Shown in pieces: positions 55,038-59,038 of a stretch of DNA of 64,000 nt (position 1 is the stretch's first letter; every line of letters begins with the position of its first letter). Source of the DNA: Gammaproteobacteria bacterium. Its GTDB lineage: Bacteria; Pseudomonadota; Gammaproteobacteria; JAJPIJ01. The stretch spans positions 24,814 through 88,813 of the forward strand of contig JAJPIJ010000006.1 of the NCBI GenBank assembly GCA_021324815.1, written 5' to 3'. The notes under the pieces were generated by a model. It searched no databases. It saw nothing but the letters and a program-made list of their open reading frames with translations, and had not been told where the DNA came from. The position numbers were made by a program, and so were the translations under genes.

Positions 55038-56078
55038 ATGCGCGCCCGCGGTGGCATGTCTACACCCGATGGACCCGCAAATAGAGCCGGCACGTTGAAG
55101 AATGCGATTTTCCTGGGTTTGGTCGCGGGACTGGCGCTCGCCGCCGGCCTATTGATCAATTCGGGGCTCGCGGACGTCGGGCATGCGATCGCCGTGGGCG
55201 GCTGGCCGGCGCTGCTGGCGGTCACGGTTTTGCATCTCCCCTCCATGGTGCTGTGCGGGCTGGCGTGGCATCAGGTGTCCTTCGCCGCCGGCAATCCGAT
55301 CGGCCTGTTCGCCGCCGCGCGCCTGGTTCGGGACGGCGCCGGCAGCGTGATCGCGGTGTTGCCGATCAGCGGCGAGCTCGCCGGCATGCGGGCCCTGGTC
55401 TGCTGCGGGTTCACCGCGTCCGACGCCATCGCCAGCGTGGTCGTCGACGTCACCATGGAGCTCTTAAGCCAGGTGGCGTTTTCCATCATCGGCGTGGCGC
55501 TGTTGTACTGGCAGAACCCGCAGGATCCAATCATTAAAACCGCCGCCCTCGGCATCGCGGTGGCGGTGCCGGCGGTGTTCGGTTTCATGAAGATGCAGCG
55601 CTCCGGCCTGCTGAGCGGGCTCGAGCAGCTGTCCTTCAAGCTGGCGGAGGCGCAGCAATGGCCGGCCGCGCGCGGCGTGTCGAGGATCGAGGCGGCCATC
55701 CACGGCCTCTATCTCCGCCGGCGCCGGGTCTGGCGCGCCTTTACGCTGCACCTGCTGGCCTGGATCGCCGGCGCCGCCGAGGCATGGGCCGGCCTGTGGT
55801 TCCTGGGGCACCCGCTGGCGGTCTGGCAGGTGCTGGCCATCGAGAGTCTGGTCTATGCCATCCGCACGGTGGTGTTTTTCGTGCCGGCCGCGGTCGGCGT
55901 GCAGGAGGGGAGCTACGTGATGCTGGGCGCGATCTTCGGCCTGGGGCCGCAGGTGGCGCTGGCGATCTCGTTGCTCAAGCGCGGGCGCGAGCTGGCGCTG
56001 GCGGTGCCGGCGATGTTGATGTGGCATCTCCTGGAGAGCAGGCTGATGTTGCGGCGGCGGACGCCGTCGCCGGATTGA
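55038..56078 (+). CDS. Flippase-like / lysylphosphatidylglycerol-synthase transmembrane-domain family protein (HpnL-like), ~8 TM
   Basis: Polytopic 346-aa protein with the pattern of the UPF0104/LPG-synthase TM region. An alternative start is the ATG at 55056. Confidence 0.6.
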   Translation: MRARGGMSTPDGPANRAGTLKNAIFLGLVAGLALAAGLLINSGLADVGHAIAVGGWPALLAVTVLHLPSMVLCGLAWHQVSFAAGNPIGLFAAARLVRDGAGSVIAVLPISGELAGMRALVCCGFTASDAIASVVVDVTMELLSQVAFSIIGVALLYWQNPQDPIIKTAALGIAVAVPAVFGFMKMQRSGLLSGLEQLSFKLAEAQQWPAARGVSRIEAAIHGLYLRRRRVWRAFTLHLLAWIAGAAEAWAGLWFLGHPLAVWQVLAIESLVYAIRTVVFFVPAAVGVQEGSYVMLGAIFGLGPQVALAISLLKRGRELALAVPAMLMWHLLESRLMLRRRTPSPD

Positions 56079-57312
56079 AGGTCGGGATGCCCGCCGGCGC
56101 GGTTCCGTCTGCCAGGGGGTGAACGGCCATCTGCAGGCCCTTTTCGGCCCGCAGGACATGCCCGCCCCAGCGCATCGACCGCGAGGCGAAGCTGGCCAGC
56201 CAGACGTTGAAGGTGAGACATTCACGCACCAGCAGCATGCCCAGGGATGCGTGCCGCCGGCATCCCAGCCGCCCGGAGACCACGATGTCCAGTTGCTGTT
56301 TCAGGGCGGCATGCAGCAGCAGCAGAACCAGATAGCTCAATCGGAAGTGCGGCCACAGCAACAGCACCGAGCACGGCAGCAGCCCATGCATCACCAGGGC
56401 GCAGGCATGGGCCAGCGGACGGCAGGCCCGCAGCGAGCGCATCCACCGCAGTTCGTGCTCGAACAGCGTTTCAACGCCGTCCTCGGCGACGATCGTGCCG
56501 ACGACATAAGGCGCCAGCCGCAGGCGGAAGCCCGCCCCGCGCAGGAGCCTGCCCAGCACGTCGTCCTCGGCGACGGCGGACGCCAGGGCGCGAAATCCAC
56601 CGGCGCTTTCGAGCGAACGGCGCGTCACCGCCATCACCGCCCCGTAGAGCAGGTCGATCTCCCGCAGGCCGGAATCCACCAGCATCGAGGGCAGCAGCCA
56701 GTTGTTGATGTGCATGGCGCCGAGTCGCGAGGCCAGGTTCTCGACCGGCTCGCCCTTGTACAGGCAGGTGACCCCGCCCACACCGTCCTCCGACAGCGGC
56801 GCGACCACCGTGGTGAGGAAGGCCGGATCCACCTTCACGTCGCTGTCCACCATGACGATGACGTCATGCCGGACGGCGCGGTACATGTTGGCGAGATTGG
56901 AGACCTTGGGATTGGAACCGATGCGGGCGTCGTCCACGACCAAGGCCGCATCCAGGTGCGGCAACTCGGACATGATCCTTTCGATCACGCCGCGGCCGGC
57001 GTCATCGGCGCGGTGAAGCCCGAACACCACCTGGTACACGGGATAATCCTGCTCGCAGCAGGAGCGCAGGCATTCATAAAGGCCGCGCGGCGCGCCGCAC
57101 ACCGGCAGCATGATCGTCACCGGCGGCTGGAAGGGGGAGGTGAACAGCCGGCGCTCATGGAAACGCGACATGCGCCACAGGGCCACCATCAGATAGGCGA
57201 TGCTGGCCAGCGACAACAGGACGCCGGCGGCGTGCACGCGGCTCATGTGATAGAAGGCGTGATGATGATGGGCGTGCCAATGGCCCCAATGATGGAGTGC
57301 GTAATAGTCCAA
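55975..57312 (-). CDS. Membrane-bound GT2 glycosyltransferase (HpnI-like / ceramide-glucosyltransferase-like) with His-rich N-terminus
   Basis: …PVTIMLPVCGAP…VVFGLHRADDAGR…DSDVKVDP… GT2 DxD-type motifs, flanked by TM segments. The N-terminus is MDYYALHHWGHWHAHHHHAFYH when the TTG at 57312 is taken as start. Its last 104 bp overlap the convergent HpnL-like gene. Confidence 0.6.
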   Translation of the reverse strand: MDYYALHHWGHWHAHHHHAFYHMSRVHAAGVLLSLASIAYLMVALWRMSRFHERRLFTSPFQPPVTIMLPVCGAPRGLYECLRSCCEQDYPVYQVVFGLHRADDAGRGVIERIMSELPHLDAALVVDDARIGSNPKVSNLANMYRAVRHDVIVMVDSDVKVDPAFLTTVVAPLSEDGVGGVTCLYKGEPVENLASRLGAMHINNWLLPSMLVDSGLREIDLLYGAVMAVTRRSLESAGGFRALASAVAEDDVLGRLLRGAGFRLRLAPYVVGTIVAEDGVETLFEHELRWMRSLRACRPLAHACALVMHGLLPCSVLLLWPHFRLSYLVLLLLHAALKQQLDIVVSGRLGCRRHASLGMLLVRECLTFNVWLASFASRSMRWGGHVLRAEKGLQMAVHPLADGTAPAGIPTFNPATASAAATSACSPGDATSTSPAPPAPARARA

Positions 57313-57465
57313 GGTTGCCGCCCCTGTCGTGGTTGGTTCTTCCCGGCTCGTGACGCTTGAAACACTAAAGCCAGCTTGGACGGGAGCGGGCCCCGCAACC
57401 GTCCCTCATCATGCACGCCGCGCTCGTGTCCCCTGCCGCAAAAACACAATTGCCGGTGGACAAAC

Positions 57466-57480
57466 GCAAATCACATGCCG
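57466..57480 (-). promoter_or_regulatory. Candidate sigma-54 promoter (minus strand) CGGCATgtgatTTGC upstream of the GT2 gene
   Basis: Reverse complement of 57466-57480. GG and GC are spaced exactly as in the consensus. It lies between the NtrC-type regulator gene and the GT2 gene on the same strand. Confidence 0.4.
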
Positions 57481-57667
57481 GAATTGCAACCGTATGTTCT
57501 GATGAGCGCGGCAGGCACCGGCGGGGGCGGCAGCCCGCAGGATATTGCAGACCGCGCAAAAAATGTCTGCAACGAGTGGGCGGAATGACGGGATGACCCG
57601 TGCCGCTCCCCGGGTATGACGGATCTGGAACGCTTCCGCGCGGGTTAACGTCAGCGCCGCGTATGTG

Positions 57668-59038
57668 TCAGCCTGCGCCCAGGCCGAATTTCTTCAACTT
57701 GTACCACAGCGAGCGTTCGCTGATTTGCAACAGTCTCGACGCCGCCGACTTGTTGCCGCCGGTTTCGGCAAGGGCCCGCTTGATCAAGCGCTTCTCAAGG
57801 GCGTCGATTTGCGGCTGCAGGGCCCAATCTCCATCGCCGCCGGTGGGGGGGCGCGGCCGCGCCTCCGTGCCGGCGGCCATCTCGACGGGCGGCAGATGGA
57901 CGGCATCCACCACGTCCCCCGGACCGATCACCAGCGCGCGCTCCATGGCGTTCTCCAGTTCGCGCACGTTGCCCGGCCAGTCATGATCGATCAAATGCCG
58001 CCGGGCGGATTCGCTCAACGGCGGCACCGTCCGGCCCATGCGCGCGGCGTGCTTGCCCAGAAAGTGCTCCGCCAGCAAAACGATGTCTTCACGCCGTTCA
58101 CGCAGGGGCGGCAGCGGGATGGCGATCACGTTCAGCCGGTAGTAAAGGTCTTCGCGCAGCCGTTGCTCACGGACGGCGGCCTGGGGATCATGGTTGGTCG
58201 CGGCGATCACGCGGATGTCGATGTCGATGACGTGATTGCTGCCCAGTCTTTCGATGCGGCCGTCCTGCAGCGCGCGCAGCAATTTGGCCTGCAGCGGGGT
58301 GCTCATCTCCGTCACCTCGTCCAGGAACAGCGTGCCGCCATGGGCCAGCTCGAACTTGCCGACCCGATCCCTCTGCGCGCCGGTGAAGGCGCCCTTGACG
58401 TATCCGAACATCTCGCTTTCCAGGATGTCCGCGGGGATCGCGGCGCAGTTGATGGGCACGAACAGGCCCTGGCGGCCGGAGGCCTTGTGGATGGCGCGGG
58501 CGACCAGCTCCTTGCCGGTGCCCGTCTCGCCCATCACCAGCACCGGGGTCCTGGCCGGCGCGACCTGGCGGATGAGCGCATAGACCTCGCGCATCGCCGG
58601 GCTGCGGCCGATGAACTCGTCCCAGCCCTTCTCCACCTCGTCGCGGAGGTAGCGGTTCTCGCGCTGCATCTGGCCGAGGGCAAGCGCGCGGGCGACCGCC
58701 AGTTCCACGGTCTCCATCTCGAACGGCCGGATCAGGTAATCGGCCGCCCCGTATTTCATCGCCGTCACGGCGCTCTCCACCGTGCCGTAGGCGGTCATGA
58801 TGATGACCGGCGTCTCCTCGTGCAGCGCGCGCAGTTCGCGCAGCAGATCCATACCGTCCATTTCCGGCATTTTCAAATCGGTGATCACGAGATCAAAAGT
58901 TTCATGTTCCGCCAGCGCCAGCGCCTCCCTGCCGTTGCCGGCGCGCAGCACCTCGTGCCCCTGCTTTTTGAGCATGATCTCCAGCAGGCGCTGCATCTTC
59001 ACCTCGTCATCGACGATCAGCACGCGATTGCCGCTCAT
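57668..59038 (-). CDS. Sigma-54-dependent response regulator (NtrC family: receiver, AAA+ sigma-54 interaction domain, Fis-type HTH)
   Basis: …LIVDDEV…DLKMPEMDG… receiver domain. GETGTGKE Walker A, GAFTGA sigma-54 contact motif, and a C-terminal HTH. The ATG at 59038 overlaps the kinase stop. Confidence 0.9.

Follow-up and report, generated by a model that had tools for sequence, protein, structure and literature searches.

Likely sigma-54 and two-component control of hpnI, a predicted hopanoid glycosyltransferase gene, in a variable block of a soil gammaproteobacterium

We analysed a 64-kb stretch of DNA (the window, from contig JAJPIJ010000006.1) of an uncultured soil gammaproteobacterium that is known from metagenome contigs only. 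Here a membrane glycosyltransferase gene of family GT2 converges on a flippase-like gene and lies directly downstream of an NtrC-type two-component system. On balance, we favor reading the two genes as hpnI and hpnL of the known hopanoid side-chain machinery, with hpnI under sigma-54 and two-component control. The locus is thus not a new envelope system but a set of known families in an unusual, accessory and probably sigma-54-wired arrangement. Hopanoid side-chain genes are normally read as constitutive parts of hpn clusters, and in our literature search no paper connected them with sigma-54 or with a two-component system. What appears modestly new is the setting: hpnI sits in a block that has been gained or lost among relatives, beside a two-component regulator, and its apparent promoter region is common to that regulator's other target operon in related genomes. 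A preliminary description of the window had instead proposed an unrecognised envelope glycoconjugate system; the features and coordinates that it listed were all found in the sequence.

Results

The convergent genes score as hpnI and hpnL

The GT2 protein scored 338 bits against the NCBIfam equivalog model for HpnI (TIGR03472, cut-off 310), with residues 28-392 covering positions 6-367 of the 373 in the model, and matched Pfam Glyco_transf_21 at 5e-39. In an alignment of 29 homologues, its catalytic motifs D, DxD, D and RxxRW are intact, and every column invariant among the homologues is kept (D104, D156/D158, D250, E287, R289 and W290). The HpnI family profile gave a full-length match to the solved ceramide glucosyltransferase (E 3.6e-45), as would be expected if the enzyme glycosylates a lipid on the cytoplasmic side of the membrane. 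BcsA structures matched the same profile weakly (E ~3e-4) and over the glycosyltransferase core alone. Processive synthases of the PgaC/NodC/BcsA type were rejected as candidates, with 31 bits against PgaC (cut-off 422) and 35 against NodC (cut-off 550). We accordingly annotate hpnI as a GT21/GT2 membrane glycosyltransferase, predicted to be a putative bacteriohopanetetrol (BHT) N-acetylglucosaminyltransferase. In the described pathway, the BHT N-acetylglucosamine made by HpnI is deacetylated by HpnK, and the cyclitol ether is the work of HpnJ (PMC12583986); for the characterisation of HpnI in Burkholderia cenocepacia, that paper cites Schmerk et al. 2015.

For context we drew on 80 related loci from species-representative genomes, found by an alignment-based scan; individual loci compared with the window carry L-numbers. 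A scan of the same genome collection with the single GT2 protein recovered no relative, and the source species is not in that collection. Neighboring genes were clustered and identified by NCBIfam across the 80 related GTDB loci and a few others. The neighbors were those of hopanoid clusters: HpnL (37), HpnJ (36), HpnK (33), HpnN (20), HpnH (15), HpnA (13), HpnB (10) and Shc (10). In a neighbor-joining tree the window GT2 is sister to its counterpart in L085 (75% identical), and the clade of these two with L005 and L088 is nested among members of hpnI-K-L clusters (L006, L089, L008, L021 and L013). Other surrounding members come from shc/hpnH/hpnA clusters (L010, L012, L014 and L015), and some of the surrounding clusters read hpnI-hpnK-hpnL(-hpnN). 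This firm grouping with hopanoid clusters is the outcome that the preliminary description had itself named as refuting an unrecognised glycoconjugate system, and by that standard the system is a known one.

A second HpnI-like clade came to light in the same comparison. Its members (L007 3999-5087; L086 10001-11176) are 55-56% identical to the window protein, the L007 product scores 344 bits against the HpnI model, and the genes always lie directly downstream of hemN and near cbb3-oxidase genes, with no hpn neighbors. One metagenome-assembled genome (MAG), CAYVOU01, carries both the hemN-linked paralogue and the two-component-linked one.

The product of the convergent gene scored 278.7 bits against the NCBIfam HpnL model (TIGR03476, cut-off 195.65) over positions 2-318 of 318, and matched Pfam LPG_synthase_TM (PF03706) at 1.8e-19. 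Identity with its counterparts is 80% for L094 and about 72-75% for L085. The likeness of the pair to HpnI and HpnL, noted at first as a resemblance, is more than that, since both proteins score above their NCBIfam cut-offs. An AlphaFold2 model of HpnL from 49 homologues (pLDDT 89.3) is all-helical and depicts a membrane protein of 8-10 helices. MprF structures were its sole matches in the PDB (TMq 0.52-0.55, probability 1.0, ~345 aligned columns), a relationship that sequence search does not detect. The function of HpnL has been called unknown, with aminoacyl-transfer chemistry suggested (bioRxiv 10.1101/2025.07.29.667474). The modelled fold favors a role in translocating or presenting a (glyco)hopanoid over one in aminoacyl transfer.

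hpnL is resident and hpnI belongs to a variable block

Comparison by blastn showed that collinearity with relatives breaks at either end of a 7.65-kb block (Table 1). The block holds hpnI with its leader and promoter, the response regulator and sensor kinase genes, and the porin-like, small-protein and T_hemolysin genes. In L094, which is ~83% identical in nucleotides across 11 kb of synteny, the whole block is missing and hpnL stands alone between pcnB/tRNA-Glu and glcD. In L085, hpnL and hpnI both lie beside glcD and a sub-block (57229-63692) is missing, comprising the two-component system and the porin-like, small-protein and T_hemolysin genes. The 5' end of the glcD/E/F-like genes forms the right-hand boundary in both relatives. 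No direct repeats were found flanking the 7.65-kb block. Across hpnL from the block, ~100 nt upstream of that gene and in the same orientation, is a tRNA-Glu(CTC) gene (54862-54937, +).

hpnL is thus the resident gene at this site, and hpnI with the two-component module is the variable block. The GT2 and flippase-like genes had been described as a pair forming one unit with the two-component system; that view does not survive the comparison, as hpnL occurs alone in L094 and the hpnI block comes and goes.

The region upstream of hpnI resembles a promoter of the regulator's other proposed target operon

As first described, an NtrC-type two-component system lies directly upstream of the GT2 gene. 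In the spacer between them the minus strand reads CGGCAT-GTGAT-TTGC (57480-57466), a candidate -24/-12 element. Against the sigma-54 consensus TGGCAC-N5-TTGCW (11 positions, core GG-N10-GC) it matches at 8 of 11 positions and has an intact GG/GC core. A plain consensus scan of the window at up to 2 mismatches returned 34 matches against 33.8 expected, and we replaced this uninformative scan with core-anchored scoring and comparison with relatives. Two sites in the window reach 10/11, one before the kinase gene and one before a pilin-like gene, and both are intergenic and correctly oriented. Pilin-like genes are a classic type of sigma-54 target, and the site TGGCACAACCAATGCT indicates that the organism uses RpoN.

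Upstream of the hpnI element lies a perfect dyad (Table 1). No second match occurs in the window (0.15 expected even with up to 3 mismatches), and the dyad is a candidate enhancer (upstream activating sequence) for the adjacent sigma-54 activator. Its 26-nt form, TTGCANACNNTTTTTGCGCNGNCTGC, had no match in any shuffle of the window and, among the 95 loci of the motif search, was confined to copies of the window locus and to the regions upstream of the T_hemolysin genes of L005 and L093. These T_hemolysin promoters can be aligned with the region upstream of hpnI over the dyad, the -24 GGCA and the -12 TTTGCGTT, at near-identical spacing. In both L093 and L005 the T_hemolysin operon adjoins an orthologous two-component system, whose kinase is 58-60% identical to that of the window. 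In L090 and L092, sigma-54-like sites lie between the orthologous regulator gene and the next gene.

The site TGGCATCGGGTTTGCA upstream of the kinase gene implies autoregulation of the kinase-regulator operon, which is probable, and possibly control of hpnI too if the genes form one transcription unit. No terminator-like site was predicted on the minus strand between the regulator gene and hpnI, so read-through from the kinase-regulator operon is also possible. Inspection by eye found nothing convincing as a sigma-54 site upstream of the L005 kinase gene. The sigma-54 control proposed at the outset thus keeps its plausibility and gains from the alignment with the L093 and L005 promoters, while the -24/-12 element that had been put forward for it is not significant when taken alone. 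Taken together, these comparisons make control of hpnI by sigma-54 and the regulator likely.

A metagenome-wide scan for the 26-nt motif returned five unrelated low-GC contigs and did not recover the known JGI contig of the locus. On one unrelated low-GC contig (L096 3950-4066, -) the same enhancer-like motif, TTGCAGACACTTTTTGCGCGGACTGC, is followed ~75 nt later by TTGGCATAGATAATGCT, which suggests a binding site used by related activators in distant bacteria.

The two-component system has its own conserved partners

The regulator matched Pfam Response_reg (5e-31), Sigma54_activat (3e-68) and HTH_8 (5e-14), and its GAFTGA motif is visible in the translation. On this domain content it is a bona fide NtrC-family enhancer-binding protein. 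Orthology to AtoC, NtrC, ZraR and the PEP-CTERM regulator PrsR was considered and rejected on score (485 against a cut-off of 714, 407 against 559, 405 against 760 and 390 against 503 bits, respectively). In the public calls, the start of the regulator gene overlaps the end of the kinase gene by 4 bp.

The sensor kinase has a large periplasmic domain, as first described: ~260 amino acids of dCache_1 between two predicted transmembrane (TM) segments. Public gene calls give a kinase of 678 amino acids from GTG 61071. Its orthologues are ~595 amino acids long and align with the long open reading frame (ORF) from about its residue 72-83 onward. The true start is probably ATG 60825. The near-consensus sigma-54 site at 60925-60940 falls inside the 5' extension of the long ORF.

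A pair of genes for a porin-like protein and a small periplasmic protein adjoins the kinase orthologues in L005, L090, L091 and L093. The porin-like protein has a weak BBP2 match (Pfam). Both proteins may be co-sensors or primary targets of the two-component system. The pair is always divergent from the kinase and regulator genes, as far afield as a Methylococcus sp. MAG, and the small protein (~150 amino acids) carries a GAIGYVS motif, which we take to be typical of PstS-type binding proteins. Because the conserved partners elsewhere are these two genes, the link between the two-component system and hpnI is, across the loci compared, lineage-specific, yet it recurs in two arrangements, that of the window and that of L005.

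The T_hemolysin gene heads longer strings in sister lineages

The T_hemolysin gene of the window has a sigma-54-like site of its own, with TTGCAGAC repeats ~90 nt upstream of it, and equivalent sites precede the T_hemolysin genes of L005 (4318-4333) and L093 (923-938). In L005 the dyad-bearing promoter is followed by a series of genes that all run in its direction, namely T_hemolysin, acyl-CoA ligase, TPR, short-chain dehydrogenase/reductase (SDR), HpnI-like (337 bits) and methyltransferase genes. L088 has the same TPR, SDR and HpnI-like core. The strings (L005 4395-10786, L088 2-6557) have an optional Haem_oxygenas_2 gene, and after the HpnI-like gene comes either a methyltransferase gene or a TPR/sulfotransferase gene. 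Such strings may encode an as yet undescribed pathway that tailors a glycosylated lipid head group. For the T_hemolysin protein, which may be an acyltransferase, a sequence search of the PDB found no solved relative, and a single-sequence AlphaFold model reached a pLDDT of 38.

The 104-bp overlap and the histidine-rich N-terminus

The 3' ends of hpnI and hpnL overlap by 104 bp (55975..56078). It is shared by metagenome assemblies of the locus made independently at ENA, JGI and NCBI, which excludes sequencing error; contigs or MAGs with the locus include ENA ERZ27279671 k141_295017 (530 kb), JGI Ga0070741_10000098 and GCA_037025745.1. In an alignment of the 3' ends with L085, hpnL stops in register, and the TGA stop of L085 hpnI corresponds to GGA in the window. 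The L085 gene stops 28 nt before the hpnL stop and so has no overlap, whereas the window ORF runs 40 codons past that position, antisense to hpnL. The overlap follows from this single-base difference. Of the last 53 HpnI residues, 16 are Ala, 9 Pro, 6 Thr and 5 Ser, a composition that arises because position 2 of the tail codons faces the GC-rich wobble position of hpnL. Homologues end about 40-50 residues earlier, and the tail is in none of the others in the 29-homologue alignment. The one-base difference from L085 does not support reading the overlap as a designed feature; it is most simply a neutral and recent by-product of a lost stop codon.

At the other end of hpnI, most public gene calls start at ATG 57246 (423 amino acids, P0001), and one JGI call uses the upstream TTG (445 amino acids, P0121). 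A GGGG run lies ~8 nt upstream of the TTG and is a plausible Shine-Dalgarno sequence; no purine-rich run precedes ATG 57246, which seems to lack one. Translated from the TTG, the protein begins MDYYALHHWGHWHAHHHHAFYHM, with 10 histidines in its first 27 residues. The L085 protein begins MPHHHVLLHMSHIH, and a TGA closes its frame 9 codons upstream. The histidines just before Met23 are retained in L085 and the intervening residues have changed; no other homologue has the histidine-rich stretch, so that this N-terminus is lineage-specific within the alignment. TM1 of HpnI spans residues 28-46, with three Lys/Arg after it and one before. This charge distribution suggests that the histidine-rich tail, which precedes TM1, probably faces the periplasm.

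That the overlap and the tail are functional devices, the overlap coupling hpnI and hpnL through antisense transcription and the tail sensing metal or pH, is the least probable of the alternatives and we give it very little credence: the overlap is real and reproducible, it contains no predicted terminator-like site, so that convergent transcripts should collide, and the histidines just before Met23 have persisted in L085 despite changes between them, but L085 has no overlap, the C-terminal tail is of low complexity with the composition expected from the antisense of GC-rich hpnL codons, neither it nor the histidine-rich stretch recurs in any other homologue, and most gene callers start HpnI after the histidines.

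Other genes of the window

Most of the remaining window genes are housekeeping genes (trpE/G/D/C, panBC, folK, pcnB, hemC, gshB and pyrB), and RND efflux, TonB-system and GT4 genes are also encoded. Genes for glcD/E/F-like FAD and Fe-S oxidases follow the T_hemolysin gene, from window 63697-64000 (+) onward (L001 1-3529). A tRNA-Arg(TCG) gene (49562-49638, +) adjoins a second, small indel that holds a DUF347 gene here and a methyltransferase gene in L094.

Table 1. Coordinates of the hpnI-hpnL locus and associated features (window positions).
Feature	Position	Strand	Remarks
Best sigma-54 site of the window, TGGCACAACCAATGCT	39904-39919	-	10/11; 50 nt upstream of pilin-like (N_methyl) gene 39135-39854
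hpnL ORF	55038-56078	+	346 aa
hpnI (GT2) ORF	55975-57312	-	445 aa from TTG; alternative start ATG 57246
Variable block, 7.65 kb	56062-63709		ends at blastn collinearity breaks
Histidine-rich N-terminal extension of HpnI	57232..57312	-	translated if TTG 57312 is the start
Candidate sigma-54 -24/-12 promoter of hpnI, CGGCATGTGATTTGCG	57465..57480	-	153 nt upstream of TTG
Perfect dyad, TTGCAGAC-N12-GTCTGCAA	57545..57572		centre ~80 nt upstream of -24
Response regulator ORF	57668-59038	-	REC, sigma-54 AAA+, HTH_8
Sensor kinase ORF	59035-60825/61071	-	dCache_1, HAMP, HisKA, HATPase
Strong sigma-54-type site, TGGCATCGGGTTTGCA	60925..60940	-	10/11; 100 nt upstream of kinase start
Porin-like outer-membrane protein gene	61104-62129	+	divergent from kinase gene
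Small periplasmic protein gene	62138/62159-62629	+	divergent from kinase gene
T_hemolysin promoter region	62653..62762	+	TTGCAGAC and TTGCAGGGAC repeats, 62653-62677
Sigma-54-like site, TGGCATGGCCCTTGCC	62747-62762	+	9/11; 35 nt before T_hemolysin ATG 62797
T_hemolysin-family gene	62797-63540	+	PF12261, Pfam 2e-43

Discussion

We propose that hpnI and hpnL act in hopanoid side-chain synthesis and that hpnI answers to the adjacent regulator. By homology, HpnI would transfer N-acetylglucosamine from a UDP-sugar to the terminal hydroxyl of BHT at the cytoplasmic face of the inner membrane. HpnL, which would correspond to an MprF-type flippase domain alone, would most likely move the glycosylated hopanoid to the outer leaflet or help to present it there. 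The division of labor would parallel the logic of ArnC (GT2), ArnD (deformylase) and ArnE/F (flippase). From sequence comparison, the dCache domain of the kinase would sense a periplasmic signal and the kinase would phosphorylate the activator, which would bind the dyad at 57545-57572 and the related repeats at 62653-62677 and open the sigma-54 promoters before hpnI, the T_hemolysin gene and its own operon. Wired in this way, hopanoid head groups would be glycosylated in response to an environmental cue and not constitutively.

Several observations weigh against this proposal. The score of the GT2 exceeds the HpnI cut-off by only 28 bits. Its nearest sister clade (L005 and L088) has the glycosyltransferase gene in the non-canonical T_hemolysin/acyl-CoA ligase/TPR/SDR string, and in another near clade the HpnI-like gene lies beside hemN. 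Neither tblastn of the 64-kb window nor Pfam on its 37 ORFs found shc or hpnH, J, K, N, A, B, D or G, and HpnJ and HpnK references gave no tblastn match anywhere in it, in agreement with the preliminary description, which had reported no hpnJ/K or shc. Since the window has no copy of shc, hpnH, hpnJ or hpnK, the substrate of HpnI is only inferred, and fold similarity is the sole basis on which we infer the flippase role of HpnL. On the side of regulation, it is the porin-like and small-protein genes, rather than hpnI, that accompany the two-component system across Gammaproteobacteria as its conserved partners. The hpnI -24/-12 element taken alone is at chance level, with 93 sites at least as good in the window and ~0.26 expected on that strand of the 355-nt spacer. 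L085 carries hpnI and hpnL with neither the two-component system nor a recognisable sigma-54 site, so the system is not required for hpnI as such.

An extension of the proposal would make hpnI and the two-component, porin-like, small-protein and T_hemolysin genes an accessory, signal-controlled module for remodelling the hopanoid head group. Sister lineages would then add an acyl-CoA ligase, an SDR and a methyl- or sulfotransferase, and a periplasmic cue, acting through sigma-54, would lead to BHT glycosylation and possibly to further tailoring such as acylation. We regard this as tentative, a possibility to keep in view more than one to expect. If true, the module would give hopanoid side-chain chemistry its first described dedicated transcriptional circuit, and it would be a candidate origin for composite hopanoids that have no known genes.

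It is somewhat unlikely that the adjacency of the two-component system is incidental, with the porin-like, small-protein and T_hemolysin genes as its main targets and hpnI transcribed from another promoter or by read-through. Kinase orthologues (47-60% identity) keep the porin-like/small-protein pair and differ downstream of the regulator gene, and both the L085 arrangement and the 8/11 score of the hpnI element, with the chance expectation given above, sit well with this idea. Against it, the dyad and -24/-12 region of hpnI is homologous to the T_hemolysin promoter in two other genomes, the HpnI-like gene of L005 lies within the string that such a promoter heads, and no sigma-70-like promoter was detected in the spacer between the regulator gene and hpnI.

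A further alternative concerns the substrate: the GT2 could be an HpnI-like paralogue that glycosylates another lipid, either the product of the T_hemolysin, acyl-CoA ligase and SDR genes or a ceramide-like one. This would make the original idea of an unrecognised glycolipid system correct. The sister-clade strings (T_hemolysin, ligase, TPR, SDR, glycosyltransferase, methyl- or sulfotransferase) lie without hpn genes nearby, the homology to ceramide glucosyltransferase is full-length, the window has no hopanoid core genes and the score is modestly above the HpnI cut-off. The equivalog cut-off is passed all the same, a bona fide HpnL adjoins, and the GT2 is nested in clades drawn from hpnI-K-L, hpnN and shc/hpnH clusters. 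In a published survey the HpnI domain is confined to genomes with SHC and HpnH (bioRxiv 10.1101/2025.07.29.667474). As for a link to sphingolipid synthesis, Pfam gave no aminotransferase-family hit of the serine palmitoyltransferase type among the 37 window ORFs. We consider another lipid acceptor improbable.

Should the proposed control of hpnI be real, the locus would offer testable, signal-dependent glycosylation of hopanoids in a soil gammaproteobacterium, with a defined triplet of regulator, enhancer and promoter. hpnL occurs alone in L094, with hpnI in L085 and with both hpnI and the two-component block in the window, a natural series that gives a comparative handle on the function of HpnL. 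For annotation, the locus is to be read as hpnI/hpnL and not as a new glycoconjugate system, and its long convergent overlap as an evolutionary artefact of stop-codon loss in a GC-rich genome.

Comparison with known systems

The window protein shares with HpnI (TIGR03472) an N-terminal TM helix, a cytoplasmic GT-A domain and C-terminal TM helices, as well as the above-cut-off score and placement in the tree. Its gene differs from the usual hpnI in having no adjacent hpnK or hpnJ, in lying outside any hpn cluster and amid housekeeping genes, and in having a sigma-54-type candidate promoter within a gained-or-lost block; the protein differs in its histidine-rich N-terminus and its 53-residue low-complexity C-terminal tail. 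With eukaryotic ceramide glucosyltransferase (GT21; PDB 26qf) it shares full-length homology and, as predicted, the glycosylation of a membrane-lipid hydroxyl from a UDP-sugar, but by score and gene context it belongs to the bacterial HpnI family.

HpnL, for its part, is typical of its family (TIGR03476; LPG_synthase_TM/UPF0104) in its above-cut-off score, its hpnI neighbor and the MprF flippase-domain fold of its model. It departs from the family in orientation: hpnL converges on hpnI here, whereas the usual order is a co-directional hpnI-(J)-K-L, and the two genes share a strand in nearly all related loci that have both. The model superposes on the transmembrane flippase portion of MprF (PDB 7duw, 9j8q and 7f47), but HpnL lacks the C-terminal aminoacyl-phosphatidylglycerol synthase domain and is 16-22% identical.

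The two-component system has the domain architecture, GAFTGA motif and Fis-type helix-turn-helix of NtrC-family systems such as AtoSC, ZraSR and NtrBC, together with a dyad ~80 nt from the -24 element and a sigma-54-type promoter before its own operon. Unlike these systems, it falls below all of the equivalog cut-offs and belongs to an orthologue group of its own in Gammaproteobacteria, marked by the divergent pair of porin-like and small periplasmic protein genes.

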